From an uncultured Fibrobacterota bacterium (GTDB taxonomy: Bacteria; Fibrobacterota; CAYVZU01), in assembly GCA_964455935.1 (NCBI GenBank), contig CAYVZU010000008.1, forward strand, positions 299 to 64,298: a DNA stretch of 64,000 bases, given 5' to 3'. Position numbers and translations under genes: made by a program. The notes under the pieces were generated by a model. It had not been told where the DNA came from. It saw only the letters and a program-made list of their open reading frames with translations, and did not search any database. Positions 20,824-47,021 of the stretch are shown here, one piece after another (position 1 is the first letter of the stretch; each line of letters starts with the position of its first letter).

Positions 20824-20834
20824 TTTGTCCGCTC

Positions 20835-20973: not shown

Positions 20974-20976
20974 TGG

Positions 20977-21888: not shown

Positions 21889-21893
21889 TAACT

Positions 21894-23740: not shown

Positions 23741-23744
23741 TTTT

Positions 23745-28279: not shown

Positions 28280-29797
28280 ATGAGAAAGATCCTTTCATTA
28301 TTCGTGGTTCTTGGCCTGACGGGGACTGTTCTGGCGCAGGCCCTGGACACCGCCGCGGCGGCAGACGAAAGCCGGACGGCCGCAAACCAAGAGCGGCTCA
28401 AGTCATTGGAGGGCAAAGCTGACGGTCTCAACAAGTCCTACTTGGAAACCAAATCCACCGTTGACAAGCTGGCAAAAATCAAGATTTCAGGCTACATTCA
28501 GACTCAAGCGCGCATGCCTACGGACTATGATGCGGCCACGGATTCAAGCCTCACCCATTCCGCCTGGGGCAAGTATCAGTACAAGGTGGGCGACTTCGCC
28601 GGCGGTGCCTTTTCCGATCGGGTTTCGAGCGCATTCGAAGTTCGTCGCGGCAGAGTTAAAATCGCCTATGAAACGGCATTGAGCATGGCTGTTGCGCAGC
28701 TCGATATTATCCCCTTTAGGTCCGCCAATTTTCTTCAAAGCGTGACCACAACAACAACGCGTGACACAATAGCCGACAGCCTGGGTGTCAACCATGTCGT
28801 AACCCGGTCCGCCACAACAACATCAACCAGCAGCGCGGCCCTCACCGGCGGCGGTGTTAGCGTGAAGGATATTTATCTGAGATTCACCGAGCGCTGGTAC
28901 AAGAGCTTCGCGCTTAAAATGGGTATTTTCGACAGGCCCTTTGGCTTTGAAATCGGCTACAGTTCCAGTTCCCGCGAATCGCCCGAGCGCTCCAGGGCCG
29001 AGCAGACCCTGTTCCCCGGCGAGCGCGATTTGGGCGTTTCACTTGAATACTTACCCGCGGACAACATGCCGGTTTGGGCTCAGCATTTGAATTTTAAGGG
29101 CGGCTTCTTTACTGGAAACGGGATTAACGTGGAAACCGACGGTAAGCGCGACTTCATTGGCCGGCTGGGCGTTACCTTCCCGTTTAATGAGCTGAACTTC
29201 GCGGTTGACGGTGGCGCCTCCCTCTACAATGGCTCGGTCCTTTCCCAGAACGATTCGGTTTTTGAAATCAGCGGCACATCCTTTGCGCCGGAAACCGGTA
29301 ATAAGAATGAATATATCGACCACCGGTACTTTGGCGGCGATGTGCAAATCTATTACGGAAATACCCCGGTCATTGGTGGAACCACGTTGCGCCTGGAAGG
29401 ATACGTAGGCTCCCAGCCCGGTTCCAAGACCAGCAATTCCTCTCCAAAATCCGACATGCCCAGCTCGGCCCAGATTTACAAACGCAATTTTCTGGGCGGC
29501 TATGTTATGCTGGTTCAAAACCTCGATCCCATTAAAAGCCAGCTTGCGCTCCGCTATGATTGGTTTGATCCGAATACGGAAATCGAGGGGACACAGGTCA
29601 GTTTTCAGGAAACCCAGACCACCGACCAGAGATACGGTACGCTGGGGATTGGCGAGGTTTATCACTGGGACGAGAATGTGAAATTCATCGCTTACCTCGA
29701 CAAGATTTCTAACGAGGAAATCACGGATAGCCGGGCGATCTTTACCGATGATGTTGAGGACAACGTTTTCACTTTCCGTGTCCAATACAAATTCTAA
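28280..29797 (+). CDS. Phosphate-selective porin O/P family outer-membrane protein
   Basis: Signal peptide, N-terminal coiled-coil, beta-rich body, and a C-terminal aromatic residue (..QYKF). Sits immediately upstream of pstS. Confidence 0.7.
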   Translation: MRKILSLFVVLGLTGTVLAQALDTAAAADESRTAANQERLKSLEGKADGLNKSYLETKSTVDKLAKIKISGYIQTQARMPTDYDAATDSSLTHSAWGKYQYKVGDFAGGAFSDRVSSAFEVRRGRVKIAYETALSMAVAQLDIIPFRSANFLQSVTTTTTRDTIADSLGVNHVVTRSATTTSTSSAALTGGGVSVKDIYLRFTERWYKSFALKMGIFDRPFGFEIGYSSSSRESPERSRAEQTLFPGERDLGVSLEYLPADNMPVWAQHLNFKGGFFTGNGINVETDGKRDFIGRLGVTFPFNELNFAVDGGASLYNGSVLSQNDSVFEISGTSFAPETGNKNEYIDHRYFGGDVQIYYGNTPVIGGTTLRLEGYVGSQPGSKTSNSSPKSDMPSSAQIYKRNFLGGYVMLVQNLDPIKSQLALRYDWFDPNTEIEGTQVSFQETQTTDQRYGTLGIGEVYHWDENVKFIAYLDKISNEEITDSRAIFTDDVEDNVFTFRVQYKF

Positions 29798-29851: not shown

Positions 29852-30673
29852 ATGCGGAAAATTCTTGTCCTGCTGAGCATGGTCTTGTTGAGCGCACTGG
29901 CCTTCGGCAAGACCGTGATCACAGTAAAAGGCTCCGACACCATGGTTATCCTGGCCCAGCGCTGGGCCGAGATGTATATGGCCGCTCATCCCGATGTGAC
30001 GGTGCAGGTCACGGGTGGCGGATCGGGAACCGGAATTTCGGCCCTCATCAATGGCACTACGGATATCTGCAATGCTTCCCGACCCATGAAGGGAAGCGAA
30101 CGGGAGAAACTCAAACAGCGCTATAACTCTCTGGGCGTGGAAATTAAGGCGGCCAAGGACGGGCTTTCCGTCTATCTGAACGAAGACAATACAGTTACGG
30201 AACTAAGTTTGGCCCAGATTCGCAGCATCTACCTGGGCAGCATTACAAACTGGAAAGAGGTGGGCGGCAACGATGCCAAAATCATCCTTTATGGCCGTGA
30301 AAACAATTCAGGGACCTACGTTTATTTCCGGGATTTCGTCCTCAAGGGCCAGGACTTTTCGCCTCAGACCCAGACATTGCCGGGAACGGCCGCGGTCGTA
30401 AATGCGGTCGCAAAAGATAAAAACGGGATCGGCTATGGCGGCGCTGCTTATGCCAAGGGCATTCGCTTCGCCCAGGTCAAGGCTGACGAGAACAGCCCCG
30501 GATACGAGCCCAACGCCGAAAATGTCAAAAAGAACCTGTATCCGATCAGCCGGTATCTCTATCTGTACACCCGAAGCAGGCCTACGGGTGAAGTGAAGAA
30601 ATACATCGACTGGATCCTGAGCCCCGAAGGCCAATCCGTTGTCGAGAAGGTCGGATATTTCCCGGTGCGATAA
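29852..30673 (+). CDS. pstS: Phosphate-binding protein PstS (second system)
   Basis: Signal peptide. TVKGSDTM..GGGSGTG PBP motifs. Confidence 0.9.
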   Translation: MRKILVLLSMVLLSALAFGKTVITVKGSDTMVILAQRWAEMYMAAHPDVTVQVTGGGSGTGISALINGTTDICNASRPMKGSEREKLKQRYNSLGVEIKAAKDGLSVYLNEDNTVTELSLAQIRSIYLGSITNWKEVGGNDAKIILYGRENNSGTYVYFRDFVLKGQDFSPQTQTLPGTAAVVNAVAKDKNGIGYGGAAYAKGIRFAQVKADENSPGYEPNAENVKKNLYPISRYLYLYTRSRPTGEVKKYIDWILSPEGQSVVEKVGYFPVR

Positions 30674-30735
30674 TGGATCGAGTCTGTTCAGCGCCCCCTT
30701 CCCATCCTTCCCCCGCAGGGGGCAGGTGCTTAAGG

Positions 30736-30770
30736 AAGTCCCCCTACGGGGGATTTAGGGGGCGTTTTAC
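30736..30770 (+). terminator. GC hairpins between pstS and pstC (attenuator/terminator-like)
   Basis: CCCCCGCAGGGGG and CCCCCTACGGGGG stems, followed by ATTT. Confidence 0.4.
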
Positions 30771-30775
30771 CAGCG

Positions 30776-31795
30776 GTGGAAGCCAAGATGAATTTTCGTA
30801 GGCTCCGGCTTCGCATTGCCGAATTCATTGCCGAGAAGGCGATTTTCGCGATTGCGCTCTTCTCGCTGGCCTGTATTGTCCTGATCTTCGTGTTCGTGTT
30901 TCGCGAAGCCGCAACCCTGTTTGTTAATCGATCTCCTGCATCATCCCAAAACGCACTGGAGCAGCAGGAAACCTACGGTGACGAGGGTCTGGAAGATTCT
31001 CCCCCGCCTGATGAATTGGTCGAGAAGGAAAAGGCGATCCGCTTTCGGGACTTGTGGTGCACGATCTGGCAGCCCGTGTCGTTGCACCCGCGATACGGGC
31101 TTCTGCCGCTTCTGGCCGGCAGTCTGAAGGTGACGTTGATTGCGATTCTTTTCGGTGCGCCGATCGCGATTCTAGCCGCGCTCTTTACAATAGCCTTTGC
31201 GCCGCGCTGGTCCAAGGAAATTCTGAAGCCGGCGATCGAGATTTTGTCGGGGTTTCCCTCCGTGGTGATCGGCTTCTTTGCTCTCGTTGTCATGGCCTCC
31301 TTTCTCCAGAAGCTTTTTGGACTGGAGTACCGGCTAAACGCATTCGTAGGCGGGCTTGCGCTTTCGCTGGCCGTCATTCCCATCATCTACACGATCTCCG
31401 AGGATTCTCTTTCGGCCGTTCCCAAGTCTCTGAGCGAGGCGAGCCTTGCCCTGGGGGCAGCCAAGTGGGAAACCGTGCTGTTCGTGATGCTGCCCGCGGC
31501 CACGCCCGGCATTTTCGCCGCGATCCTCCTTGGCTTTGGCCGTGCCTTTGGCGAAACCATGATCGTGCTGATGGCCACGGGCAATGCAGCGCTTCTTTCG
31601 TTCGATGTACTGGAGCCTGTGCGCACCATGTCGGCCACCATTGGCGCGGAAATGGCCGAGGTGGTCTTTGGCGATACACATTACAGCGTTCTCTTTATGA
31701 TTGGCGCCATCCTATTTGTCATCTCCTTCGGACTCAATGCAATAGCCGAGGTGTTCGTGCGCCAGCGTTTGATGAAACGATTCAAAGGTGGATAA
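30776..31795 (+). CDS. pstC: Phosphate ABC transporter permease PstC
   Basis: GTG at 30776 (ATG at 30788). EAA-like loop SLALGAAKWETV. Confidence 0.9.
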   Translation: MEAKMNFRRLRLRIAEFIAEKAIFAIALFSLACIVLIFVFVFREAATLFVNRSPASSQNALEQQETYGDEGLEDSPPPDELVEKEKAIRFRDLWCTIWQPVSLHPRYGLLPLLAGSLKVTLIAILFGAPIAILAALFTIAFAPRWSKEILKPAIEILSGFPSVVIGFFALVVMASFLQKLFGLEYRLNAFVGGLALSLAVIPIIYTISEDSLSAVPKSLSEASLALGAAKWETVLFVMLPAATPGIFAAILLGFGRAFGETMIVLMATGNAALLSFDVLEPVRTMSATIGAEMAEVVFGDTHYSVLFMIGAILFVISFGLNAIAEVFVRQRLMKRFKGG

Positions 31796-32698
31796 GTGAG
31801 GTTTAGGAAATCATTGTACGGCGCCTCGGTCTTTGGAATCACGGCCTTTTGCGCGGGTATTATTTTGACCGCCCTGGTGATCATGATGACCACCATTGTC
31901 CTGGGCGGCTACAAGCATATCACATGGACATTCCTGACCGCGGCGCCTGCGGAGGGCATGACCGCCGGCGGGATCTTCCCGGCCATTGTGGGAACATTCT
32001 GGCTTGTACTGCTCATGTCCCTGGCCGGCGTGCCGGTGGGCACGGCCACAGCCCTTTACCTGTGCGAATACGTCCGCCAGCGATCGATCATCGTGCGCGC
32101 CATCCGTTTCGCCGTCAACACCCTGGCGGGAATCCCATCCATCGTTTTCGGGCTCTTTGGCCTGGGATTTTTTATCCAGTTCGTGGGAAAAAGCGCCGAT
32201 TCGCTGCTGTTGGGACCCGGCGTGGTGAAATGGGGACAGCCCAATCTGCTATGGGCCAGTCTCACCATGGCCGTCCTCACCCTGCCCGTGGTGATTGTCT
32301 CGGTGGAGGAGGCCATCAAGAACATGCCGCAAGAATATCGCGAGGCAAGCTTCGCCCTGGGCGCGACCAAGTGGCAGACAATTCGGCAGGTGGTCATTCC
32401 TCATTCCCTCACCGGTATGTTCACGGGCAGCATTCTGGCAATCAACAGAGGCGCAGGCGAGGTCGCTCCCATTCTCTTCACCGGAGTGGCCTACTTCCTT
32501 CCGCACCTTCCCTCGGATTTATCGGACCAGTTCATGCACCTGGGCTATCACGTCTATATCATGGCAACGCAATCAACCAACGTGGAGCAGACAATGGGAA
32601 TCCAGTACGCGACCACTCTCGTGCTGCTGTTTCTGGCCTTCACGCTGAACCTGGGGGCCATTTTGCTGCGGTATCGGATTCGGAGGAGGATGGCCTAG
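31796..32698 (+). CDS. pstA: Phosphate ABC transporter permease PstA
   Basis: GTG start directly after the pstC stop. SFALGATKWQTI motif. Confidence 0.9.
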   Translation: MRFRKSLYGASVFGITAFCAGIILTALVIMMTTIVLGGYKHITWTFLTAAPAEGMTAGGIFPAIVGTFWLVLLMSLAGVPVGTATALYLCEYVRQRSIIVRAIRFAVNTLAGIPSIVFGLFGLGFFIQFVGKSADSLLLGPGVVKWGQPNLLWASLTMAVLTLPVVIVSVEEAIKNMPQEYREASFALGATKWQTIRQVVIPHSLTGMFTGSILAINRGAGEVAPILFTGVAYFLPHLPSDLSDQFMHLGYHVYIMATQSTNVEQTMGIQYATTLVLLFLAFTLNLGAILLRYRIRRRMA

Positions 32699-32716
32699 CA
32701 TGGCCGGAACACCATA

Positions 32717-33475
32717 ATGAGCGCCTATAAGACAATAATCCGCAATTTGAACTTCTTTTACGGAAGCCAACAGGCTCTTTTCGACATCACCATGGATATT
32801 GAGCCGTTTCAGGTCACGTCGCTGATCGGACCTTCGGGGTGCGGCAAATCCACATTTCTGCGCACGCTCAACCGCATGAATGATCTAATCGAGAATACCC
32901 GGGTCACCGGCGAGGTGATCGTCGACGGCCAGGACATTTATGGCAAGAAGGTGGATGTCGTGGCCTTGCGAAAGAAGGTTGGAATGGTCTTTCAGAAATC
33001 AAACCCATTCCCAAAAACAATTTTCGACAATGTCGCCTTCGGCCCCAGAATTCACGGGATTCACAACACAAACCGGCTTAACGAAATCGTGGAGAGCTGC
33101 CTGCTCCGGTCGGGCCTTTGGGATGAGGTCAAAGATCGGCTGCACACAAGCGCACTGGGTCTCTCGGGCGGTCAGCAGCAGCGGTTGTGCATCGCGCGCG
33201 CCCTGGCCGTGGACCCGGCAATTTTGCTGATGGATGAACCCGCTTCGGCCCTTGACCCGCGCTCGACCGCTAAGATCGAGGATCTGATTGCCGAATTGCG
33301 GAAGAACTATACCATCATCATTGTCACGCACAACATGCAGCAGGCCTCGCGCGTTTCCGATATCACGGCCTTCTTCTACGAGGGCCGCCTCATTGAAATG
33401 GGGCCAACCCGAAAGATCTTCACGAAACCCGACATCAAACAAACCGAAGACTATATCACCGGAAGATTTGGATAA
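32717..33475 (+). CDS. pstB: Phosphate ABC transporter ATPase PstB (fully canonical)
   Basis: Walker [10 protein letters not shown], signature LSGGQQQRL, Walker [12 protein letters not shown] and H-loop VTHNMQQA are all canonical. Confidence 0.95.
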
Positions 33476-33488
33476 GCGAGGAACCACC

Positions 33489-34169
33489 ATGGCAGTCCAC
33501 ATGCGCCGCGAGATCGACAAACTTAATCAGCAACTGCTTGAGCTTGGTACGCGGGTCGAAGAGGCGGTTGTGGCGGCCATTGCCGCCGTGGAGGAACAGG
33601 ACGTCGAGTCCGCCCGGCAGGTGATCCAAAACGACGAGCGAATCGATCGCAGTGAAATTGAGGTGGAAGAGGAATGCCTCAAGATTCTTGCCCTTTATCA
33701 GCCCGTGGCCATTGATCTCCGGTTCATTGTCGCGGTACTCAAGATCAACGGCGATTTGGAGAGGATTGGCGATCTGGCCGTTAATATCGCCGAACGGGCC
33801 ATGCTCCTGGCGTCCAAAGATGCGCCTTCCGTCGACTTCGATTTCCATCGAATGTCCCAGGAAGCCCTGGCCATGCTCAAGCAAAGCCTGGACGCACTGG
33901 TCAACATGGATGCCAACTTGGCCTATCGAGTCCTGAAATCCGATGATGAAATTGATTCTTTAAACCGCCAGAATTACGACAAAGTCATGTACGCTATCAA
34001 CAGCAATGCCCAGCACGCCAAGATCATGATCCATTACCTGAGCATTTCCCGTTTTCTCGAACGCCTGGCGGACCATGCCACCAATATTGCGGAAGACGTT
34101 ATCTATCTGGCGACCGGCGAGATCGTGCGCCATGCCGGAGAACAGGACAGGCCGACTTCTAACCCTTGA
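33489..34169 (+). CDS. phoU: Phosphate signalling regulator PhoU
   Basis: Start taken at MAVHMRREI (33489). Two PhoU repeats. Confidence 0.9.
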   Translation: MAVHMRREIDKLNQQLLELGTRVEEAVVAAIAAVEEQDVESARQVIQNDERIDRSEIEVEEECLKILALYQPVAIDLRFIVAVLKINGDLERIGDLAVNIAERAMLLASKDAPSVDFDFHRMSQEALAMLKQSLDALVNMDANLAYRVLKSDDEIDSLNRQNYDKVMYAINSNAQHAKIMIHYLSISRFLERLADHATNIAEDVIYLATGEIVRHAGEQDRPTSNP

Positions 34170-34893: not shown

Positions 34894-36795
34894 TTACAAT
34901 TCAACCCTTGATCCCAATTCCACAACGCGGTTGGGCGGAAGCCCATAAAAGCTTGTAGCGTCAAGAGCGTTGCGCGACATGAATTCGAACAGCTTTTTAC
35001 GCCACATTCGCATTGTGGGATGTTTTCCAATAACCAGCGATTCGCGCCCCAAAAAATAGGTGGTCGTCTCGGGTTTCAAAGCGCTATCCAAACCCGTGAG
35101 ATTCATAAGCGCCGCGGGAATATCGGGTGCCTCAAAAAAGCCGTAGCCGAGAATCACCCGAAAAATCCCATGCCCCAATGAGTCGACCCGCGCGCGCTGC
35201 GAAGCGGCCACATAGGGGATCTCCTGACTTTTTACCGCAAGGATGATCGTTCGTTCGTGCAGAACCATATTGTGCTTAAGATTGTGGAGCAGGGACCCGG
35301 GAACCGCTTCGGCATTGGCCGTTAAAAAAACGGCCGTCCGGGGGACCCGATTGAATTGCGTCACGTGCTCCGGAAGGATGCTTAACGGCATTGCGTTCGC
35401 AAAAATCCTCTTGCGCAAGACCTCCCGGCCGTCGATCCATGTCTTAAAAGAAATGAAGATCGCCGCTGCAATAATCAGCACGATCCATCCGCCGGTTCCA
35501 ATTTTTAGAAGGTTTGAGATAAGAAACGAGCAGTCAACAAGAAAGAATGCCGCAATCAGGGGCACAAGAAATATCCAGCGCTTCTTCCATAGCGCGCGCG
35601 AAACGAGCGCAAGGAGCATGGTTGTGATCAGCATTGTTGCCGAGACCGCGATCCCGTAGGCCCCTGCCAGGCGACCGGACTCTTTAAAACCAAGAATGAG
35701 GGCCAGCGTTCCAAAAAAGAGGCACCAATTCATAAACGGCACGTAAACCTGCCCTATTTCGCTGATTGAGGTATGACGAATCTGCACCCGGGGCCAGAAA
35801 CCAAGAGCCACGGCCTGTTTTGCCAATGAAAATGCGCCGGAGATCACCGCCTGCGATGCAATAACGGTCGCGGCGGTTGCCAAAACCACCATCGGGAGCA
35901 GAGCGCCGGGTGGAACAAGGCGATAAAACAGATTATCGATGGGTCTGTTTGCGCCCAGCAAATAGGCTCCTTGTCCGAAATAATTCAGCAGCAGGCCGGG
36001 AAGAACAATGCCATACCAGGCAAGTCGAATCGGCTTTCGTCCAAAATGACCAAGATCCGCGTAAAGGACTTCGGCCCCGGTAACCGCCAAAAAAACCGAA
36101 CTCAGAGTTTTAAAGCTGTACAGACCATTGCGGTCCAGGAAATCCATGGCAAGGACCGGGTTCAGGGCTGCCAGAATCGAAGGATCCTTTGCTATGGAGA
36201 TTGCGCCCAGCAGCCCCAGAACCAGAAACCAAAGCAAAACAACGGGGCCAAAAAGAGTACCGATTCGCGCGGTTCCTTTTGACTGAACCGCAAAGAGCGC
36301 GGCAAGAGTTCCGATCGCGACGGGAATAACATATGGCTTAAAAAGCGGTGTTGCCACATTCAGCCCTTCCACTGCGCTTAGAACGGAGATTGCCGGCGTT
36401 ATAATGCCGTCGCCAAAAAGCAGGGCGGCCCCAAGAATTCCCATGGAAAGCACCAACAGGGAGTTCTTTTTTCTGGGATCGGCCCGGCCTCGTTCCACAA
36501 GCGTCATGAGGGCCAGAATGCCCCCTTCCCCGTTGTTATCCGCACGCAGAACCAGAAAAACGTACTTAAAGGAAACAATCAGAAGGATGGTCCAAAGCAT
36601 AAGGGACACAACCCCCAATACATTCTCCTTTGTGGCGGGGACCGCGTGCGCGCCTAGGAAACATTCCCGAAGGGCATAGAGCGGACTGGTGCCGATGTCG
36701 CCGAAAACAATGCCCAGTGCAAGAAGGATTAAATGGGGAATTTTGCCCCTTGATTGTTGGTTGGAAACGAAAAATTGAGGTGTGGAAGAAAGCAT
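34894..36795 (-). CDS. kup: KUP/HAK/KT family potassium transporter
   Basis: GDIGTSPLY motif, 12 TM helices and a C-terminal cytoplasmic domain. Confidence 0.9.
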   Translation of the reverse strand: MLSSTPQFFVSNQQSRGKIPHLILLALGIVFGDIGTSPLYALRECFLGAHAVPATKENVLGVVSLMLWTILLIVSFKYVFLVLRADNNGEGGILALMTLVERGRADPRKKNSLLVLSMGILGAALLFGDGIITPAISVLSAVEGLNVATPLFKPYVIPVAIGTLAALFAVQSKGTARIGTLFGPVVLLWFLVLGLLGAISIAKDPSILAALNPVLAMDFLDRNGLYSFKTLSSVFLAVTGAEVLYADLGHFGRKPIRLAWYGIVLPGLLLNYFGQGAYLLGANRPIDNLFYRLVPPGALLPMVVLATAATVIASQAVISGAFSLAKQAVALGFWPRVQIRHTSISEIGQVYVPFMNWCLFFGTLALILGFKESGRLAGAYGIAVSATMLITTMLLALVSRALWKKRWIFLVPLIAAFFLVDCSFLISNLLKIGTGGWIVLIIAAAIFISFKTWIDGREVLRKRIFANAMPLSILPEHVTQFNRVPRTAVFLTANAEAVPGSLLHNLKHNMVLHERTIILAVKSQEIPYVAASQRARVDSLGHGIFRVILGYGFFEAPDIPAALMNLTGLDSALKPETTTYFLGRESLVIGKHPTMRMWRKKLFEFMSRNALDATSFYGLPPNRVVELGSRVEL

Positions 36796-36996
36796 TCATC
36801 CCCCAATGATTGCGGACCTGTGCGCGGGATTGCTCTTCGCGCTGACGGTGGTAAGCCCCGTGGTCGAGATCGCCGATGTAATGTTGAATAGGTTGTCTAT
36901 GAGCTTGCTCGGCTTGGTTCGGGAAAACAGAAGTGAAAGGAACCGTGTGCCAATGGGAGACGGTTGGATCGGTGTGTCTAATGACTGAGAATCCAT
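36796..36996 (-). CDS. 66-codon upstream ORF in the same frame as kup, separated from it by a single TGA
   Basis: GGAGG RBS 7 nt upstream of ATG 36996. Stop TGA 36798..36796 is immediately followed by the kup ATG. Coding status uncertain. Confidence 0.3.
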   Translation of the reverse strand: MDSQSLDTPIQPSPIGTRFLSLLFSRTKPSKLIDNLFNITSAISTTGLTTVSAKSNPAHRSAIIGG

Positions 36997-37065
36997 TTGG
37001 TTTACCTCCGGTTTTGGGGCATTACGGAGGCAGAACCGGAATGGTTACCTCACAATAACGCTCTC

Positions 37066-37190
37066 CCACATGCCTACGAGGTTAGCTGACGGGCTCGGGC
37101 TTGGAAGTGCCCTATCCTTGACGGAATACGCCCCAAGAGTTGGGTCCCCCGCATCCATGGTTTTCCCATGGATTTCGGCTACATCATTTG
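37066..37190 (-). promoter_or_regulatory. c-di-AMP riboswitch candidate (ydaO/kimA class) in the kup leader
   Basis: The minus-strand RNA contains GAUGCGGGGGACCC, UUGGGGCG..AUUCC and CCCGAGCCCGUCAGCUAACCUCGUAGGC. The last matches the conserved 3' block of the B. subtilis ydaO aptamer as I recall it. Confidence 0.6.
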
Positions 37191-37477
37191 TGAAACTTGT
37201 TAAACCTAAATGCCGCGGTTGCTGCTATTCGCTACGGGCAACTGCGGTTTTTGGGTTAAGATTCTGTTGCTAACCTCCCTTTGGTTGGATGGTTTCACAG
37301 TACGAGTATTTCGATGATGAAAAATATAGCAACAATAATTGGCGGCAATCAATTTGTTCAGCGCCCTTGTGGAACGCACAAGGTGCGATTTAAACGCAAA
37401 ATACCGTAGCGGTAACAGGGATACAAGCCGGGAGCCGCGCAGTCAGTCAGAAGCAGAAGGGATCTATGAGGCGGGTT

Positions 37478-38482
37478 CTATTGCCCGTCCTGCGAAACGA
37501 ACCGCGGGCTGCCGACTTGAATTGCCTGCGGGTACGTGCCGGGCAGCCGGCGGGTCTGCGGGAACTCCTGCCGGACCTGCTCCAACAGACAGTCGACCTT
37601 TGCGGAGTCCTCGTTTCGCACCGGCATTTGAATGAGATAATACGTTTCATTCCCGCCCGGAACAGCTCGCAGGTAAGCACGAACGCCGTCGTTCGCATTG
37701 GCGTAGTCGCCCCGGCCAAAGTTGAGGAGGCTGTCGATTTCGTGGTATGCGGTTGCCACGGCTTGCGGATTACGGCTCCCTTTTACCACGGCCTGATAGA
37801 TGGGCAATGCCTTTTGGGGCTGGCCAAGCATGCTATAGCAGTATCCCAGGTCGAGCATGGCCTTGTCGCGCTTGACGGTATGGAGCGCAAGATACTTCTG
37901 CAATGCGGCCGCGGCAGCCGCGAAATTTCTCTTTTTGATCAGGCGACCCGCAATTTCGTAGTGGTGGTCGTCGGACGATGCTCCATAGGGGAGTCGACCG
38001 GTTTTGGACTTGATCGTTTGCGGAGAAGGACGAACCTGCGCGGAATCGGGCTTTGCTTCCGGGGGGCGCGCCTGGCTGCCCGAATTCGGTATTGATGCCA
38101 CTTGCGGAGAAGGGGTCATCTTCTTTCCAAGGTCCAGTGCGTGGAAGAAATACCCGCCGAAAAAAACAAGGACCAATGCGGCAAAGCCCCAGGCGATTCG
38201 CAAACCTGCGAAAGTGGGAGACGTGTGCCGGACGGGAATCGGCCTGCGCTCCGCGGCGACAAGGGATCGCTCGACCATCATCCGGATTTCCGATCCGGAT
38301 AGCAAATCTTTTTCCGAAACAGGCGCGCGCAGCGCGGTTTCAATTTCCCGGAGGTCTTGGCAAAAAGCGCGGCACTTTTCGCACTGCTCCAGATGCCGGA
38401 GCAGGGCGGGTTTGGCGGATTCACCCAATTGTCCGCCAACCAAAAGATGAATCGGTTCTTCCCAGTGTCTGCAGGCCATCAT
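37478..38482 (-). CDS. Anti-sigma factor (zf-HC2, one TM, C-terminal TPR-like domain)
   Basis: HLEQCEKCR zinc-finger motif. Co-directional with, and overlapping, the ECF sigma gene. Confidence 0.7.
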   Translation of the reverse strand: MMACRHWEEPIHLLVGGQLGESAKPALLRHLEQCEKCRAFCQDLREIETALRAPVSEKDLLSGSEIRMMVERSLVAAERRPIPVRHTSPTFAGLRIAWGFAALVLVFFGGYFFHALDLGKKMTPSPQVASIPNSGSQARPPEAKPDSAQVRPSPQTIKSKTGRLPYGASSDDHHYEIAGRLIKKRNFAAAAAALQKYLALHTVKRDKAMLDLGYCYSMLGQPQKALPIYQAVVKGSRNPQAVATAYHEIDSLLNFGRGDYANANDGVRAYLRAVPGGNETYYLIQMPVRNEDSAKVDCLLEQVRQEFPQTRRLPGTYPQAIQVGSPRFVSQDGQ

Positions 38483-38484
38483 AT

Positions 38485-39078
38485 CTACATCACCCTCTGA
38501 TCCCGCAAGGCCTGTATGATTGCTTTGCGGCCTTTAAAGAGAATGGACTTGATTGCGTTTTCACTTTTGCGCGTGTGCCGCGCGATGTCGCGGACATCGC
38601 GGTCGGCGAAATAAAACATCGACAAGACTTCCCGATATTGATTGGGCAGATCCGCGATTGCCATCCTGGCCTTGTCGAAGAGCTGCTTTTTTTCGGTATG
38701 TTCCAATGGGTTCGGCTCGCGGCTTTCCCATGCATCTGCAATGGACTCCAAGGGGACCGTGTCCTTTCGCGCTTTCTCCCGGGCCAGAAAATCGAGATTC
38801 ACATTCACCGTGATGCGATAAATCCACGTGCCGAATTGTGAATCTTCCCGAAACTTGCCGATTCCATGAATGACACGCGCAACCACCTCCTGGAAAATAT
38901 CCGCCAGGTATTCGGGTTTTCGTGTCATTCGCAGGGAAATCCGCTGGATCATCTTTCCGTATGCCTTAAAAAGGTCGTGAAAAGCTTCCCGATCCCCATC
39001 TTTACATCGTCGGACAAGCTCATCCATGCGGTACCATATGGGGTGCCGCGGAGTCGGTTTTCGCCGAAACCCGGGCAA
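38485..39078 (-). CDS. ECF-type RNA polymerase sigma-70 factor
   Basis: Region 2 (FQEVVARVIHGIGKF) and region 4 (DLPNQYREVLSMFYFADRDVRDIA). The start may be the internal M at 39027. Confidence 0.85.
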   Translation of the reverse strand: MPGFRRKPTPRHPIWYRMDELVRRCKDGDREAFHDLFKAYGKMIQRISLRMTRKPEYLADIFQEVVARVIHGIGKFREDSQFGTWIYRITVNVNLDFLAREKARKDTVPLESIADAWESREPNPLEHTEKKQLFDKARMAIADLPNQYREVLSMFYFADRDVRDIARHTRKSENAIKSILFKGRKAIIQALRDQRVM

Positions 39079-40188: not shown

Positions 40189-40563
40189 CTATAATTCGCA
40201 GCGGATGCCCAGCAACGCGCACGTTTGCCGGACAAGTTCGGGACCGTTGTCCTTTGTTATGAAACAATCCGCGCCTGCCTCTTTGCTGGCCAATTCGTAG
40301 GCTTCTTTGCTATGCCCTGTGGCAATAAGGACCTTCAGGCCCGGATTCAAGCGGCACAATTCCCTTGTTAGCGTGATTCCGTCCATGCCGGGCAGCGAAA
40401 TGTCGACAATGACAAGATCAACCTTGATTTGGGGAATCCTTTCCAACGCTTCTTCGGCGGTTGCGACCTGCAAAACAATCTCAATTTCCTTGTGCTTCCT
40501 GAACATGCGCCGGTAGATGATCTGCATGTCCTCGTAATCTTCCACAATCGCAATTCGTTTCAT
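40189..40563 (-). CDS. Stand-alone response-regulator receiver domain (CheY-like)
   Basis: Acidic pocket DYED, a phospho-acceptor D in VIVDISLPGMDG, and conserved T and K. Confidence 0.85.
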   Translation of the reverse strand: MKRIAIVEDYEDMQIIYRRMFRKHKEIEIVLQVATAEEALERIPQIKVDLVIVDISLPGMDGITLTRELCRLNPGLKVLIATGHSKEAYELASKEAGADCFITKDNGPELVRQTCALLGIRCEL

Positions 40564-42524
40564 TGCGGGGCACTCTCCAGAATTGACAGCGGAATAACAA
40601 GGGTCATACGCGTGCCTTTACCGATTTGTGATTCCATTTTCAGTTGGCCGCCAAACAGCCGCAATCTCTCCTCAATGCTGAAAAGCCCCATCTCCGCCGC
40701 ACCGTATGGACGTTTTCGAACCGCCTCAACATCGAAGCCAACGCCCCGGTCTTCAACCGTGATCGCAATTCGATCCTTTTCCAGGTTACCGGAGATGACC
40801 ACTTCTCTTGTTTTTGCATGCTTGATAATATTGAAAAGCAACTCTCGCATGAGTTGCACAATCAGAATCTGGTCTACACCCCGTACCGCCGCCAGGTCCT
40901 TTGAAAGATCGATGCAAATCACAAGACCATAGTGTTCTTCCATGTGCCGGGCAAGCCAACGAAGCGCGGCATCCAGGCCTTCGTTCTTCAGAATGGGCGG
41001 ATTCAATTCGACGGCCAGAGATTTGGTGGTGGCCAGGGCTTTTTGAATCGACTTCCGGAGCATTTCAACATCACGGGCGATTTCCTCCATATCCGCCCCC
41101 GAACGGCAATGGATGGAATCGGTCAGCATCTTTGCTCCAAAAAGGTTCTGCTGAAGATCTTCATGCAGAATCCGTGAAAAGCGCTGGCGTTCCCGTTGCT
41201 CGGCAATTGTCAATTCCTTCGAAAGATCGCGGACCTGCCGCGTGCGCTCCCGTATCAGGTCCTCCAGATGATCGTTCACCGCCTTCAATTGATCTTTGCT
41301 TCGGCGTAAATCTTCCTCACTCTGCTTTTGCTGTGTAACATTGCTTGCCGTGCCAAACCATTCGACAATTTCGCCCTTTTCATTCATAATGGGAACAGCG
41401 CGCGAGAATGTCCAACCCAAAGACCCGTCCTTTTGCAAAACCCGGTGCTCCAAGGCAAAGACGCGTTTTTCCTGGATTGCCGCGTTGATGGCCGCATCCA
41501 CGTACGACTGGTCATCGGGGTGAATGTATTCCCGCCGCCAATCGCGGCTGGGGCGGGTGGTATCAGCAAGAAAATCCTGCCCGCTAAGCTGACACATTTC
41601 GCTCCAGTCCGGGGTCATCCGGTACAGGACATCCGAACTGGCCAATACGATTGCGCGAAAGCGTTCTTCGCTCTTCTGCAGGGCTCGCTCGACCGCTCTG
41701 CGTTCCGTGATATCCCGCAAAATGCTCTGGAATATTCGTTTGCCTCTGTGCTCAAAAAGAGAGCCGGTCATTTCAATCACCCTTTGCTCGCCGTCCTTTC
41801 GGATGTGAATGTGCTCATCCGTCACGCTCCCATTGAGTCTGGTCCCTCGAATAAATCGGCCCACCCGCTCCAAATCCTCGGGCCGGTGAATTTGCTCATA
41901 CGAAAGCCCCTGCAGCTCGGTACGGGAATAGCCAAGCTGGCGCGCAGCCGATGCATTGGCATCAATGATTCGGCCGGATTCGGTATCGTAAAAGATTATG
42001 GCATCATTGGCGTACTCAAAAAGGCTGCGGTAGCGCTCCTCGCTTTCACGCGATTCCTGTTCCGCTTTGCGAAGATCAGAGGTCCGCTCTCTTAATTCCG
42101 CGTTGCGCGCATCCACCTGTCCCTGAAGCAGACCCTGGTAGGCGAGCAATTGGGCTCTGGCGCGGTGCATGGTCTTTGCAACGAAGCAGATAAGGGTGCT
42201 GCTGAAAACGAAGATGATCAGTGAAAGAAAATCGAGCGGATCGGTGATCGCAAAACTGAATGCAGGATCAAGAAAAAAGAAATCAACAGCCACTGCGGAA
42301 AGCGCGGTAGCCAGCATTCCCGGCCAAAACCCGCCGAAAATGGCCGCAATTGTCACGGCGGGAAAAAACGTGATAAAAGCGGCTCGCATTCCCACTTCGG
42401 CCAGCAGCACCTTGCGCACCACAATGGCAAGAATGACAAGAAGAACTGCCGCCGCATAGCGCAATGCGGTGTTCCTGGCTCGGCATATTGCATTCAATCC
42501 GTTCATGGTGTTCTGTTGAACCAT
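40560..42524 (-). CDS. Sensor histidine kinase: DUF4118-like TM region, tandem PAS, HisKA_3 plus HATPase_c
   Basis: H-box ERERQRFSRILHEDLQQ (HisKA_3/NarX-like). ATGA overlap with the receiver gene. Confidence 0.85.
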   Translation of the reverse strand: MVQQNTMNGLNAICRARNTALRYAAAVLLVILAIVVRKVLLAEVGMRAAFITFFPAVTIAAIFGGFWPGMLATALSAVAVDFFFLDPAFSFAITDPLDFLSLIIFVFSSTLICFVAKTMHRARAQLLAYQGLLQGQVDARNAELRERTSDLRKAEQESRESEERYRSLFEYANDAIIFYDTESGRIIDANASAARQLGYSRTELQGLSYEQIHRPEDLERVGRFIRGTRLNGSVTDEHIHIRKDGEQRVIEMTGSLFEHRGKRIFQSILRDITERRAVERALQKSEERFRAIVLASSDVLYRMTPDWSEMCQLSGQDFLADTTRPSRDWRREYIHPDDQSYVDAAINAAIQEKRVFALEHRVLQKDGSLGWTFSRAVPIMNEKGEIVEWFGTASNVTQQKQSEEDLRRSKDQLKAVNDHLEDLIRERTRQVRDLSKELTIAEQRERQRFSRILHEDLQQNLFGAKMLTDSIHCRSGADMEEIARDVEMLRKSIQKALATTKSLAVELNPPILKNEGLDAALRWLARHMEEHYGLVICIDLSKDLAAVRGVDQILIVQLMRELLFNIIKHAKTREVVISGNLEKDRIAITVEDRGVGFDVEAVRKRPYGAAEMGLFSIEERLRLFGGQLKMESQIGKGTRMTLVIPLSILESAPQ

Positions 42525-42712: not shown

Positions 42713-45484
42713 TCAGGACAATGTGAAAAAAAACGTGGCCCCTTTGCCCCGTTCGCCTTCGGCCCAGATTCGTCCTCCATGCCGCCGGATTGCTCTTTCG
42801 ACGATGGCCAAGCCCACGCCGGTTCCGGAGAACTCTTTTTCCGAATGGAGCCGTTGAAAAGGTGCGAAGAGCCTGCCTGCAAGGGACATGTCAAAACCGG
42901 CGCCGTTGTCTTTAATAAAATAGACCCGCTTTCCGTGCTTATTGAAGGAACCGAACTCAATGCAGGGCCGGCCGGTTCCGGCCGTGAATTTCCAGGCATT
43001 GCCCAAGAGGTTACTCAAAGCAACGCTCAGCAGCCGGGCATCGGCCCGGACTTTGAGCCCATCTTGAATCTTTACTTCGATTTGCCGACCCGGATTGGCC
43101 GTGGTCAGCTCGTTCAGTGATAAACGGGCCATTTCGCTGAGATCAAGCTCCACCAGATCCATTTCCTGGCGGGAAATTTTCGAAAGGGCCAGCATGTCAT
43201 CAATGATTGAATTCATTCGATCCGTTCCCCGCTTGATTCTTTCAAGGTACTCCCTGCACTCCCTATTAGCCTGGTCCGAGCAGTCTTCAATCAAAACTTC
43301 GGCAAAGCCGCGGATTGTGCGCAGGGGATTGCGCAGGTCATGAGCCACGGAGTAGGAAAATGCCTCCAGATCCCTGTTGGCCACCGTAAGTTCTTTGGCC
43401 CGGCTGGAGAGTTGCTCTTCGAGCTGCTTGCGCGCGGTAATATCCTGCGTAATCCCAAAACCGCCCAGCAAAGCGCCATTTTGGTCGTATTCAAGATATG
43501 CTTTTTCCCGGACCCATCGAATGTCCTCGCCGATGATAATTCTGTGCTCGATATCATATGGAGCACCCGCAATGGCGGCGTGCCATTGAGTATCGACATA
43601 GAATTGGTCGTCGGGATGCACCCTGGACAAGAACTTTTCATAGGTCAAGGGAGTTCCCGTTGGAATGCCAAAAATGCGGTGGTTTTCGTCGGACCAGGTC
43701 AACTCGTTCTTTCGTACGTCCAGCCGCCAGTTGCCCATGCTGCCGACCTCCTGGGCCCGGGCGAGATCTTCTCTGCTGCGGCGCAAATCTTCTTCTGTCC
43801 GCCTGCGGTCGGTAATATCCACCGCCATTCCCACAATAAAGCGCCTTCCGTCATGGAGGATTCCGGGCGAGGAGGCGCTGAAGCTCCAGTATCGGATCGA
43901 TCCGTCATGGGTGCGGACCGGAAAATCGATGTTCATGGTCCTCTTTTCCTGACGAAAGAGGGACCGAACGTGATCGCGCATGGCTTGGGCCCCTGCCCCG
44001 TATGCTCGATTGAGCCATGCCTCGAAAGAGTCCATGTCCTTGGGTCCATAGCCTGTGTTTTCGGTCCAGCCTCTGCTGATCTGTAGAACCTGTCCATCCT
44101 CGGCGTGCATGATAATGGGTATTGGTGCTTCCTCAATGGCCTGGCGAAACTGCTCCTCACTTTGACGAAGGTTCTGTTCGGCCTGTTTTCGCTCGGTGAT
44201 GTCCTGGACAATTCCGGCCATACGCCGGGCATTTCCGGAAGAATCGGGAATAGGGCGACCGGCTGCCAGGATCCAGCGAATCTGGCCGTCTGCGCGCCGG
44301 ATGCGGCACTCGAAATTCCAGTTACCCCGCGTGGCAAGGGCCTGGTGAAATTTGCGATCCACCTCGGAACGGTCTTCGGGCAGCACATGTTCAAGGAACA
44401 TCTCGTAGGTCCACTGCGGCAGCGGTTCTTTGTAGCCAAAAACGGCATCGTGCCCCAAGGTGCGGTACGCCGTATGATCGATAAGATCGAGATCCCAGGC
44501 CCCCGTATGAATCGTCTCCAGAGCAAAATGCAATCGACTCTCGCTCTCCTGCAGCAACTCTTCAGCGCGTCTGCGCTCGGTAATGTCGCGCACAACCGAT
44601 ACGGACCCGATAATTTCGCCGCGGGAATTCCTTACCGGGGCGGCGCTGATTTGTCGGTGTCGAAGGTCCTTGTGCGCGGGCGTGCGAATGATCTCCTCTT
44701 CGCCGCGAATGACTTCACCTTTTAGGGCCCGCAGGGGCGGGGCTTCCTCGACGGGTCTTGGGGTGCCATCGGGCCGGTACACTTCCAGGCTGGAGGCCAG
44801 CTTCTCTACATCGATCTGCTCCTGGGAACCGGCCAATCGGAATTCGTTGCAGGCAGTAGGATTTGCCAGTGTAAAATGCCGATTTACGTCCGTAAACCAA
44901 ACCTCATCCGTAATGCTGTTGATGAGAGCCCGGAGCCTGTCCCTTTCCTGCCCAACGGCTTCCGTGCGCAACTCGACTTGCTTCTCAAGCCAAGATTGAG
45001 AGGCGACCAGCCGCGCGCGGGCGCGGTGCATGGTCTCAGTAATCACCGAAATCACGATGCCGCTGAGCAGAAAAAGAATTGTGGCAACCCAATCTGCGGG
45101 GTTGCTCATGGCCAGCCGGCCCACGGGCTCGGTGAAATAGATGGCCGCAATTACGGAAAGTATCGTGGCCAGCAATCCCGCCCGCAATCCACCATAAAGG
45201 GCCGAAACCATCACGGCCGGGTAGAAGGTCAGGAAAAGAAAGTGGGCACCCAGCGCTTCTTGAAGCGCCAGCCGGATCCCAATCGCAGCAAGCAAAGCCG
45301 GCACGGCAATGCCGAATTGACGCAGGGGTTTGCTTGGCACAATGGCAGTGCTTGAGGGGCCGGTCACAGGATTCCTTTCGCAGCGGATCTGCAATTCGCG
45401 GCTTACATACCGCAATGGACACACGCAATTCAAGAAATTTTCAGAACTGCATTTGGGCTTTGCGGACCCGCGCCAAAGAAGCAA
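42713..45484 (-). CDS. Large sensor histidine kinase: DUF4118-like TM, at least four PAS domains, HisKA, HATPase_c
   Basis: H-box HDLRNPLRTIRGFAEVL. G-boxes DNGAGFD and GTGVGLAIV. Confidence 0.85.
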   Translation of the reverse strand: MLLWRGSAKPKCSSENFLNCVCPLRYVSRELQIRCERNPVTGPSSTAIVPSKPLRQFGIAVPALLAAIGIRLALQEALGAHFLFLTFYPAVMVSALYGGLRAGLLATILSVIAAIYFTEPVGRLAMSNPADWVATILFLLSGIVISVITETMHRARARLVASQSWLEKQVELRTEAVGQERDRLRALINSITDEVWFTDVNRHFTLANPTACNEFRLAGSQEQIDVEKLASSLEVYRPDGTPRPVEEAPPLRALKGEVIRGEEEIIRTPAHKDLRHRQISAAPVRNSRGEIIGSVSVVRDITERRRAEELLQESESRLHFALETIHTGAWDLDLIDHTAYRTLGHDAVFGYKEPLPQWTYEMFLEHVLPEDRSEVDRKFHQALATRGNWNFECRIRRADGQIRWILAAGRPIPDSSGNARRMAGIVQDITERKQAEQNLRQSEEQFRQAIEEAPIPIIMHAEDGQVLQISRGWTENTGYGPKDMDSFEAWLNRAYGAGAQAMRDHVRSLFRQEKRTMNIDFPVRTHDGSIRYWSFSASSPGILHDGRRFIVGMAVDITDRRRTEEDLRRSREDLARAQEVGSMGNWRLDVRKNELTWSDENHRIFGIPTGTPLTYEKFLSRVHPDDQFYVDTQWHAAIAGAPYDIEHRIIIGEDIRWVREKAYLEYDQNGALLGGFGITQDITARKQLEEQLSSRAKELTVANRDLEAFSYSVAHDLRNPLRTIRGFAEVLIEDCSDQANRECREYLERIKRGTDRMNSIIDDMLALSKISRQEMDLVELDLSEMARLSLNELTTANPGRQIEVKIQDGLKVRADARLLSVALSNLLGNAWKFTAGTGRPCIEFGSFNKHGKRVYFIKDNGAGFDMSLAGRLFAPFQRLHSEKEFSGTGVGLAIVERAIRRHGGRIWAEGERGKGATFFFTLS

Positions 45485-45494
45485 TCTTTACGTT

Positions 45495-47021
45495 GTGGTC
45501 CCCATCCCCTTCTGTCTCGGTTACGCCGAGACCCATTACCGCTTTCTTCCTGGTCTGAGCCCTATTTATCGCAAGCAGCCGGAAATTCTAACCGATGCGC
45601 CGGCCCGGATCGAACCGGGCCAGGACCTGCCTCTGGCGCTGATCATCAAAGACGCTCACCTGTTCCCCGTTGTTCTGGAGAAGGTCGAGATCGCCGTACA
45701 CCGGGAAGGGGCCGGGTGCATTTGGAGGCAGGTCGTTTTTGAGGGGACGCAAACCATCGCGGATCCTCTTTTCTGGAGGGTCTTCACGATTCCGACTGCG
45801 AACCTTGGCGGAGCGACAATAGCGGTCAATTCGCGAATCGAATTCCAAAGCCGGGGAAGAAGCGAGATCGCCCTTAACGACAATTTTCCCGCGCTTCCTC
45901 ACAGCCAGATGGTGGTGCATATCGCCGACCAGAGCCTGCCGTGCGAGCCGGGGTGGCTGTACGGCGATGCCCATGTGCATACAAACTACTCCTCGAGCCA
46001 CGTGGAATTCGGTGCGCCGCTGGCGCTGACGTCCCAAATGGCAAAAGCCTTTGGCCTTTCCTGGTTTGCGGCAGCGGACCACTCATATGATTTCATGTGT
46101 GTGCAGGAAAATTACCGGCGTTTTGATGCCTCGGCCGCGCTGTGGAACAAGCGCGCGACGGAGATAAACGGGACGTCCCGCGAGGTTACGGTTCTTCCCT
46201 CCGAAGAGATCTCGTGCGCAAACGCAAAAGGCCGCAACGTGCACGTACTCGCGATTGGAAACCGCGATTTCGTGGCCGGTTCAGGCGACGGAGCGCGCCG
46301 CAAACGCAACCGCAAGCCCGAGCACACAATTCAAGAAGCCATTTCTCTTGTGCGCGGACAGGGCGGTCTCTGTTTTGCCGCGCACCCGCTGGTCCAGGCG
46401 GGTTGGCTCCAGAATCTTGCGCTAAACCGGGGCGCCTGGTCCGGCAAGGATCTCGCGGAAGACCTGAATGGCCTTCAATTCTGGAGCGGACACCGCGACA
46501 TCTCTTTCTTCCGAATGCGAAAGAAATGGGTGGACATGCTGCTGGCCGGCCGTCGCCTGCCGCTTGTTGCAGGAACGGATGCCCATGGCGATTTCAACTG
46601 CACGCGCAAAATCAAAACGCCCTTCTTTTCGCTTGAACAAAACCCGGTATTCTTCGGCATGGCGCGCACCTGCGTCCAGGCGTCCTCATCCTCGGAAAAG
46701 GATATCATGGCGGCCCTGGCCCAGGGACAATCCATTGTCACTGACGGCCCGTTCTGCCGAATCCGGGCTGAAGAAGGCCGGATCTGCTGGAGAGCGTTGT
46801 CGACTCCCGAGTTCGGGCGGCTGTGGCAATTGCGGATTTCGGCGGGACGGTTTGGCGAGTCCGAGCAGATTATCGGCGAGCAGCAATGGAAAGACGGACG
46901 TCTCTGTTATGACGCAAGCGGCGAAGTGTCGATGCCAACGGCCTCCTACATCCGCGCAGAGCTCATCGCCCGGCTGGGTGGCCATGAGCTGCTTTGCATG
47001 ACAAATCCGATTTATTGCTGA
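45495..47021 (+). CDS. PHP-domain metal-dependent phosphoesterase; start uncertain
   Basis: GDAHVHTNYSSSH (PHP HxH motif) and later GTDAHGD. The frame is open from 45330. A GTG at 45495 avoids overlap with the divergent kinase. The first in-frame ATG downstream is 45909. Confidence 0.55.
   Translation: MVPIPFCLGYAETHYRFLPGLSPIYRKQPEILTDAPARIEPGQDLPLALIIKDAHLFPVVLEKVEIAVHREGAGCIWRQVVFEGTQTIADPLFWRVFTIPTANLGGATIAVNSRIEFQSRGRSEIALNDNFPALPHSQMVVHIADQSLPCEPGWLYGDAHVHTNYSSSHVEFGAPLALTSQMAKAFGLSWFAAADHSYDFMCVQENYRRFDASAALWNKRATEINGTSREVTVLPSEEISCANAKGRNVHVLAIGNRDFVAGSGDGARRKRNRKPEHTIQEAISLVRGQGGLCFAAHPLVQAGWLQNLALNRGAWSGKDLAEDLNGLQFWSGHRDISFFRMRKKWVDMLLAGRRLPLVAGTDAHGDFNCTRKIKTPFFSLEQNPVFFGMARTCVQASSSSEKDIMAALAQGQSIVTDGPFCRIRAEEGRICWRALSTPEFGRLWQLRISAGRFGESEQIIGEQQWKDGRLCYDASGEVSMPTASYIRAELIARLGGHELLCMTNPIYC

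Follow-up and report, generated by a model that had tools for sequence, protein, structure and literature searches.

The question raised by the locus described here is how a riboswitch can govern a gene when the start codon beside it belongs to another open reading frame. In a 64,000-nucleotide stretch of DNA from an uncultured Fibrobacterota bacterium (GenBank assembly GCA_964455935.1, contig CAYVZU010000008.1, positions 299 to 64,298; hereafter, the window), a preliminary description made from the letters alone had pointed to a candidate ydaO-type riboswitch for cyclic di-AMP (c-di-AMP) on the minus strand, in the 5' leader of the potassium transporter gene kup. We therefore asked whether the candidate is a genuine aptamer, which start codon it would gate, and by what route kup could be reached from it. 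Taken as a whole, it seems reasonably probable that the locus carries a real aptamer which works as an OFF switch by sequestering a Shine-Dalgarno (SD) sequence, that the gated AUG is that of a stump of a trkH gene, and that control is relayed to kup indirectly.

Identification of the c-di-AMP riboswitch aptamer upstream of kup

The window was scanned with cmscan against 4227 Rfam families at their gathering thresholds, and the sole match obtained was to RF00379 (c-di-AMP, ydaO/yuaA), at 37190..37056 on the minus strand. The match has a score of 87.8 bits (gathering score 38, E 3.8e-19), so that the covariance-model check proposed in the preliminary description was cleared by about 50 bits, and the alignment spans model positions 1-134 of 134, which is the full length of the family. 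The same aptamer scores 133.5 bits with our own covariance model, R1. It lies 261-395 nt upstream of the kup ATG and on the same strand, close to the 270-400 nt originally given; the three RNA strings quoted at that time were all found on the minus strand at the place indicated. The 3' boundary had been set at 37066, and the Rfam match runs 10 nt further, to 37056, because the pseudoknot tail GGGAG is included.

The pseudo-twofold architecture expected of this class is present. The family-consensus helices are formed in the window aptamer, and 24 of the 26 consensus pairs are canonical, only two being flagged in the NC line of the cmscan output (our own count). Additionally, compensatory double changes were detected at nine pairs when five aptamers were compared using RNAalifold. 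A pseudoknot is predicted from the complementarity between the hairpin-loop strand CUUCC (37107-37103, minus strand) and the tail GGGAG (37067-37063), the equivalent loop/tail pair of the crystallised RNA being ACUCCUUCG / CGAAGGAG. This tail corresponds to a stretch that is conserved at the 3' side of the Rfam model ('GaGaG'), and it reads GGAAG in the three closest relatives (loci L162, L163 and L165, see below).

The window aptamer was also compared with the crystallised, c-di-AMP-bound ydaO aptamer (PDB 4QLM/4QLN; sequence taken from PMC5393176), and 78 of 95 aligned positions were found to be identical. The 3' block CCCGAGCCCGUCAGCUAACCUCG is identical to that of the crystallised aptamer over 23 nt, and the conserved ligand-pocket blocks GCGGGGGACCCA, GGGGCG.AU and CCCGAGCCCGUCAGCUAACCUCG are all present. 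The preliminary description had made use of a 30-mer given as the 3' block of the B. subtilis ydaO leader, which matches the window at 27 of 30 positions; since the covariance-model test was passed, that comparison is superseded. Judging from the agreement in both sequence and structure, the region 37190..37056 is almost certainly a genuine aptamer of the class-I riboswitches for c-di-AMP (ydaO/yuaA, RF00379). It should be mentioned that no diadenylate cyclase (DisA_N/CdaA) domain was found among the 46 window ORFs (open reading frames) scanned, 64 kb being a small fraction of a genome.

The gene downstream, at 34894..36795 on the minus strand, is kup, as had been proposed. Its product is a full-length KUP/HAK/KT potassium transporter of 633 aa, with the Pfam domains PF02705 K_trans (584 bits, profile positions 2-449 of 454) and PF22776 K_trans_C (160 bits), and with homologues of up to 76% identity.

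Conservation of the riboswitch-kup arrangement

The aptamers identified in this work were used to construct a covariance model, which was run over approximately 170 fetched loci, and the aptamer was detected upstream of kup in 13 loci including the window. These are the window itself, L162, L163 and L165, the Desulfobulbus loci L018, L025, L040 and L048, and the metagenome contigs L110, L114, L125, L126 and L134. The Kup proteins of L162, L163 and L165, retrieved by a search of 5.8 billion proteins, are 76%, 69% and 62% identical to the window Kup, respectively, and each of the three genes has an RF00379 match of 80-85 bits just upstream. Among the relatives whose upstream DNA could be read, these are the closest in Kup that have the riboswitch. 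The placing of a c-di-AMP riboswitch ahead of kup is thus borne out by the same arrangement in the closest Kup relatives and in Desulfobulbus.

No riboswitch was found with the closest named Kup homologues (Fibrobacteres, Lentisphaerae and Phycisphaerae, about 50-55% identity), and Kup phylogeny alone is no predictor of the presence of a riboswitch. Nor was one found between the two tandem kup genes of L164 (Kup 68% identical to that of the window), the gene in question lacking a riboswitch because it is the second of the pair. The ORF upstream of it (L164:2-780) ends in PPNRVVELGSRIEL, a Kup C-terminal motif, and any riboswitch would precede the first copy, off the contig.

Predicted c-di-AMP riboswitches have been described in the leaders of ktr, trk, kdp and kup genes across several phyla (PMC6488665). 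The pairing of this riboswitch with kup is accordingly already in the literature, the window is a further instance of it, and the basic finding is of a known type. By itself the riboswitch adds little, since c-di-AMP riboswitches before K+ importers, kup included, are known or predicted. What sets the window apart is the region that follows the aptamer. In an alignment, the window is collinear with L162, L163 and L165 through the aptamer, the downstream platform, the SD sequence and the start codon. In these three relatives the collinear start codon is the Kup start (M-N-P-L-R..., etc.), whereas in the window it opens a 66-codon ORF. The distance from the end of the aptamer to the (inferred) kup start is 43-77 nt in the 12 other loci, as opposed to 260 nt in the window. 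The window riboswitch belongs to an orthologous group of kup-associated riboswitches with a common expression platform.

Synteny is not kept beyond the riboswitch-kup cassette when the window is compared with L162 and L163. In these loci (L162:1-2622 and L163:255-2708) the cassette is preceded by genes for NifU, a cysteine desulfurase and an HMA-domain protein, unlike the extracytoplasmic function (ECF) sigma/anti-sigma pair of the window. Two further observations were made in loci examined for this comparison. Just downstream of kup in a contig of a Gemmatimonadales metagenome-assembled genome there is a c-di-GMP-I riboswitch (L017:5185-5272, RF01051, 48.7 bits), which presumably regulates the next gene; and in the metagenome contig of a riboswitch-less relative, the kup homologue is followed after about 1 kb by a 16S rRNA gene that is nearly complete (L081:5348-6866), from which the taxonomic position of that relative might be established.

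A putative translational expression platform

An intrinsic-terminator platform was ruled out, as the minus strand from 37056 to 36795 contains no hairpin with a run of U residues behind it. The leader does contain an SD sequence, GGAGG (37005..37009, minus strand, read directly in the sequence), located 8 nt before the AUG at 36996, and three mutually exclusive helices involving this region are possible in all four collinear leaders (window, L162, L163 and L165). In helix (a), the 5' flank AAUGAUGU (37188-37181) pairs with a switching segment, here called S, of sequence GCGUUAUU (37061-37054), and thereby extends P1; this proposed ligand-stabilised helix was obtained in ViennaRNA minimum free energy and duplex folds, and it is found in the window, L162, L163 and L165. 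In helix (b), S together with GAGGUA pairs with UGCCUCC and GUAAUGC (37032-37019) to give a long hairpin, within which the anti-SD is held. In helix (c), the CCUCC of the anti-SD pairs with the SD sequence GGAGG (37009-37005) ahead of the AUG.

The platform hairpin proper (37019..37051, minus strand) has a predicted energy of -16.5 kcal/mol and is conserved in L162, L163 and L165. It is made up of GAGGUA (37051-37046), a small hairpin AACC/GGUU, the anti-SD UGCCUCC (37032-37026) and GUAAUGC (37025-37019), the last being the alternative to the 5' flank as a partner of S. Changes in the sequence of S are matched in both of its partners, one pair being A-U in the window, G-U in L162 and G-C in L163. 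The competing anti-SD:SD hairpin has a predicted energy of -10.7 kcal/mol, with a P(unpaired) of 0.00-0.01 for the SD sequence at modelled equilibrium. In L163, the P(unpaired) of the SD sequence falls from 0.32 to 0.04 when S is blocked.

The following model may be drawn from these alternative pairings. Binding of c-di-AMP would stabilise the aptamer together with helix (a), the extension of P1 that takes up S. With S held in P1, helix (b) would be blocked, the anti-SD would be free, the SD sequence would be sequestered by helix (c), and initiation would be switched OFF. We consider it likely, from the conservation of the alternative helices, that c-di-AMP turns off translation initiation in this manner.

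Several points weigh against this model. In equilibrium folding, the P(unpaired) of the SD sequence is about 0 in both the window and L162, with or without the aptamer constraint, and a ligand-dependent change was reproduced only in L163, with S blocked. The modelled energies are -18.8 kcal/mol for the ON hairpin and -26.4 kcal/mol for the fold with helix (c). Moreover, the platform model is backed by four related leaders only, and most of the substitutions are wobble-compatible and not fully compensatory. Because the SD sequence is sequestered at equilibrium in the window and in L162, the ON state would need a kinetic, co-transcriptional fold. Such folds are common among riboswitches. As the equilibrium folds of the window and L162 show no ligand-dependent change, the switch model rests on the conserved alternative helices and on this kinetic argument.

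Origin of the 66-codon ORF between the riboswitch and kup

The regulated AUG opens a 66-codon ORF (36796..36996, minus strand) that is present in the ORF list and is called by two public gene callers, and that ends with a UGA stop codon at 36798-36796. This stop codon is immediately 5' of the kup AUG and in the same frame (UGAAUG). Kup itself has retained the whole of its N-terminal tail, with a separate ATG at 36795. The placing in the kup leader holds as regards position and strand, but not in the usual sense of a direct leader: between the regulated start codon and kup there is an additional ORF, overlooked in the preliminary description and derived, as described below, from trkH.

A Pfam search with the 66-aa product gave no match even at E 10, and in a word-indexed protein search it matched itself alone. 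More sensitive comparisons were made with NCBIfam, PDB and phmmer. Residues 20-56 align with positions 4-40 of 391 of the NCBIfam TrkH profile TIGR00933 (E 2.2e-5), and in PDB the best matches, located at the corresponding N-terminal position, are to KtrB chains. When 1.84 billion representatives were searched exhaustively with phmmer, there were five non-self matches (E 1.4e-5 to 3.7e-4), four of which are PF02386 TrkH proteins of 418-466 aa aligned at their N-termini. The TrkH-homologous part of the ORF (residues 15-54; 36835..36954, minus strand; alignment A3) corresponds to the end of helix M1 and the first pore loop, with the motif LIDNLFNITSAISTTGLTTVS, nearly identical to LIDNLFNVVSAISTTGLSTVS of the TrkH protein P0248. 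Compared with a real TrkH, M1 is shorter by 13 residues, and no homology is seen beyond residue 54, after TTVSA. With about 40 TrkH residues left, the ORF falls far short of the four-fold M1-P-M2 repeat architecture (about 420-480 aa). Since M1 is truncated and the homology stops at residue 54, the ORF is a gene fragment and not a transporter; going by these alignments, what is left is the fossil 5' part of a trkH/ktrB gene, referred to below as the stump.

The TrkH most similar to the stump is P0248 of locus L169, with 67% identity over 36 aa. An RF00379 match of 84.4 bits lies ahead of this trkH as well, and the stump may therefore plausibly be the remains of a riboswitch-controlled trkH. 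As regards the trkH of L169, which is located on a long-read contig, a frameshift is present in a G-run within M1 (L169:1440-1520) and another near its 3' end. Both are probably due to sequencing errors in homopolymers, as a result of which the start of the called P0248 is placed too far downstream and its C-terminus is garbled.

The kup-proximal segment of the stump (36796..36852, minus strand) was analysed separately as a possible decayed second leader of the kup type, for which the evidence is weak. It holds CCGTCAGC (36848-36841), GAAGAGCA (36838-36831) and an SD-like GGGGGA (36804-36799). The arrangement CCGTCAGC-GCG-GAAGAGCA (36848-36831) at the 3' end of the stump resembles the aptamer 3' block and pseudoknot tail of the kup leaders of the relatives, CCCGUCAGCUAACCUCGUAGGCGCGUGGAAGAGCA. 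In gap-tolerant alignments, the kup-proximal 60 nt gave z of about 2.2 against the 3' leaders of L162, L163 and L165 (p about 0.03 relative to shuffles), whereas the comparison with the leader of the window itself was at chance level (z of 0), and strict local alignment recovered only the 8-mer GAAGAGCA (p about 0.05). The resemblance to a decayed second leader is no more than suggestive, and it would fit the deletion considered next.

The sequence CCGUCAGC is common to trkH at about codon 52 and to the conserved aptamer 3' block. It is conceivable, though we would put it on the doubtful side, that the riboswitch changed its target when a microhomology deletion at CCGUCAGC fused a riboswitch-trkH unit to a neighbouring riboswitch-kup unit, and that the stump is now an obligatory leader ORF which relays c-di-AMP control by termination-reinitiation. 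Alternatively, the trkH stump-kup arrangement may have arisen by insertion.

Possible relay of control to kup and alternative explanations

Since the gated AUG belongs to the stump, any control of kup is of necessity indirect. The SD-like GGGGGA located 4 nt before the kup AUG lies in a predicted local hairpin, with a P(unpaired) of about 0.03. Ribosomes terminating on the stump might reinitiate at the kup start at UGAAUG, or unmask it, and a terminating ribosome would open the hairpin in which the GGGGGA is buried. If the stump were left untranslated, its first 120 nt, which are C-rich and G-poor with a C/G ratio of 2-3, may permit Rho-dependent polarity. A precedent for the first route is the cobalamin riboswitch of ppe2 in M. 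tuberculosis, which gates an upstream ORF (uORF) whose translation is essential for PPE2, via termination-reinitiation (PMC11260477). Whether control passes to kup through translation of the stump, by termination-reinitiation, by Rho polarity or by both, we judge to be evenly balanced. The net result would be that high c-di-AMP lowers the synthesis of Kup, as expected for a K+ importer; repression of the K+ importers kimA, ktrAB and kdp by c-di-AMP riboswitches has been described (PMC11302148, PMC6488665).

Two points count against such a relay. The SD-like GGGGGA of kup might allow translation independent of the stump, and the arrangement is known from a single population, in which the only other copies (L161 and L168) have an identical leader, so that no ratio of non-synonymous to synonymous substitutions (dN/dS) is available for the stump.

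The alternative that survives best, although we hold it to be fairly unlikely, accepts the riboswitch as real and places the control at the level of RNA. Sequestration of the SD sequence would leave the C-rich stump untranslated, Rho or RNases would be recruited to it, and the transcript would end or decay before kup. The C/G ratio of 2-3 over the first 120 nt and the lack of an intrinsic terminator are consistent with this explanation, and riboswitch-dependent Rho termination is established elsewhere, according to work cited in PMC11260477. However, there is no direct evidence of a Rho utilisation (rut) site or of Rho in this lineage, and coupling accounts no less well for the UGAAUG junction and for the burial of the kup SD. 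Moreover, control at the RNA level and reinitiation are not mutually exclusive.

The main rival to coupling is that the riboswitch has become decoupled, gating a useless fossil ORF while kup is translated constitutively from its own GGGGGA and AUG, the regulation being lost or vestigial. Besides the SD-like motif 4 nt before the kup AUG, this explanation can draw on the fact that the stump arrangement occurs in one population alone among the 13 riboswitch-kup loci, and that the stump, in which helix M1 is truncated, clearly encodes a mere piece of a protein, without function. Nevertheless, both aptamer and platform are fully intact (87.8 bits, all helices, SD and anti-SD), where useless ones would decay; the 66-codon frame is still open, and its end coincides with the start of kup; occlusion of the kup SD is predicted; and transcription of kup must still cross the leader. 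We regard decoupling as improbable.

An assembly chimera or sequencing error, with a true locus of the type riboswitch-kup or riboswitch-trkH and no stump, might be suspected because the source is a metagenome assembly and the related trkH contig L169 shows homopolymer frameshifts. This is highly improbable and was rejected, as the leader, the stump and the junction with kup are identical in three assemblies, namely the window contig, ENA k127_294464 and, independently and from another sample, JGI Ga0103681_1003728. This JGI contig (L168) differs from the window by four single-nucleotide polymorphisms, all inside kup, over about 6 kb. Its first 66 nt (L168:1-66, window 37935-37870) do not match the window, which reflects an artefact at the contig end or else a rearrangement between strains within the anti-sigma gene.

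Finally, the stump and kup are in frame with UGA alone between them, and read-through or recoding into a single Kup with a TrkH-like N-terminal extension was rejected as wholly implausible, given that UGA is the commonest ordinary stop codon among the Pfam-supported genes of the window (17 of 39), that the Kup proteins of the relatives have no such extension, that the M1 helix of the stump is truncated, and that neither a selenocysteine insertion sequence (SECIS)-like element nor any Rfam element other than RF00379 was found in the window.

Comparison with known riboswitch systems

The window aptamer has the same fold, sequence blocks and loop-tail pseudoknot as the ydaO/yuaA riboswitches of B. 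subtilis kimA (ydaO) and ktrAB and the crystallised Thermoanaerobacter aptamer (4QLM/4QLN). As in the B. subtilis ydaO and ktrAB leaders, the gene that follows in the transcript codes for a K+ importer, and by analogy an OFF response to c-di-AMP would be expected. In Bacillus, the riboswitches characterised so far terminate transcription (PMC6488665, PMC11302148), whereas the window has a putative SD/anti-SD platform and no terminator, and its host, unlike Bacillus, is a deep-branching groundwater bacterium, probably of the Fibrobacteres-Chlorobi-Bacteroidetes (FCB) group. The aptamer class and the target gene are those of the predicted kup riboswitches (PMC6488665; Desulfobulbus, L162, L163 and L165), and L162, L163 and L165 have the whole expression platform of the window, base for base in many places. 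In contrast to the 12 other riboswitch-kup loci, where the gated AUG is the Kup start, the gated AUG of the window opens a TrkH-derived ORF. The class is extended to a deep-branching uncultured groundwater lineage, probably of the FCB group, and a translational, SD-sequestering platform, common to a small clade, would be added to a family in which the examples studied act on transcription.

The closest parallel to the proposed relay is provided by ppe2/uPPE2 of M. tuberculosis (PMC11260477), where a translational OFF riboswitch gates a short uORF whose stop codon abuts or overlaps the main start codon; the coupling supposed for the window would be of the same kind. The two differ in ligand class and in the geometry of the junction, the stop and start codons overlapping out of frame in ppe2 (AUGA) and being adjacent and in frame in the window (UGAAUG). 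Furthermore, unlike uPPE2, the window uORF is recognisable as a fossil of another transporter gene. The nearest TrkH to the stump, that of L169, is also found behind RF00379, as are other trkH/ktrB genes (e.g. B. subtilis ktrAB). In contrast to L169, the window has only about 40 TrkH residues left, the two leaders are not closely related in sequence, and the window leader may be either of the trkH type or of the kup type.

It is in this fossil TrkH leader ORF with a regulated start codon that we see the more useful part of the finding. The stump has the appearance of a dated intermediate, in which a riboswitch leader was re-used once the gene behind it had been replaced or fused, and the locus offers a simple natural test case for the sequence riboswitch, uORF and reinitiation outside the mycobacteria. 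For annotation, it suggests that riboswitch-proximal "hypothetical" mini-ORFs are possibly gene fossils that carry a regulated start codon. Should both the deletion and the relay be true, this would be the first natural riboswitch acting on its gene via a recycled fragment of a paralogous target gene.

The kup neighbourhood and the host

Upstream of kup and on the same strand is the ECF sigma/anti-sigma pair (39078..37478). It is followed by a terminator-like hairpin and then by a weak promoter-like site (37323..37352, minus strand; TTGATT, an 18-nt spacer and TG-TATATT) about 130 nt upstream of the aptamer. This site is a consensus match only; promoter-like matches were no more numerous than expected by chance, and the consensus used may not be that of this lineage.

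The source sample is the groundwater metagenome SRR2177954. The best named matches of the window PolA are from Latescibacteria, Zixibacteria and KSB1, at about 50% identity and none above about 51%, and on this basis the host is a deep-branching uncultured bacterium, probably of the FCB group. There is also a relative whose PolA (P0125) has 81% identity. Since SurA, FlgK and flagellins are encoded in the window, the host is a flagellated diderm.

The Pfam-less long ORFs of the window (E 1e-5), of 433, 599, 505 and 563 aa, are located at 2914-6014 (minus strand), 28280-29797 (plus strand) and 45330-47021 (plus strand), the first two sitting within a glycosyltransferase cluster.

Downstream of kup, on the opposite strand, are genes for DUF1579, phoU and pstB. 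The window contains two separate phosphate-transport clusters, at 19269-24869 (minus strand) and 29852-34169 (plus strand), with PstS-like PBP_like_2 proteins, permeases, PstB-like ATPases and PhoU. A PhoB/PhoR-like two-component pair (25125-27598) is flanked by the two clusters, and kup is at the edge of this phosphate island. The ORF at 23745-24869 (minus strand) has an unusual PhoU architecture, in which two PhoU domains are fused to a C-terminal LMWPc domain (low-molecular-weight phosphotyrosine phosphatase/ArsC-like). A few kb from kup, two adjacent histidine kinases (40560-42524 and 42713-45484, both on the minus strand) have an N-terminal DUF4118, a KdpD-type membrane domain, and multiple PAS domains; a link of these kinases to K+ or osmotic sensing is possible.

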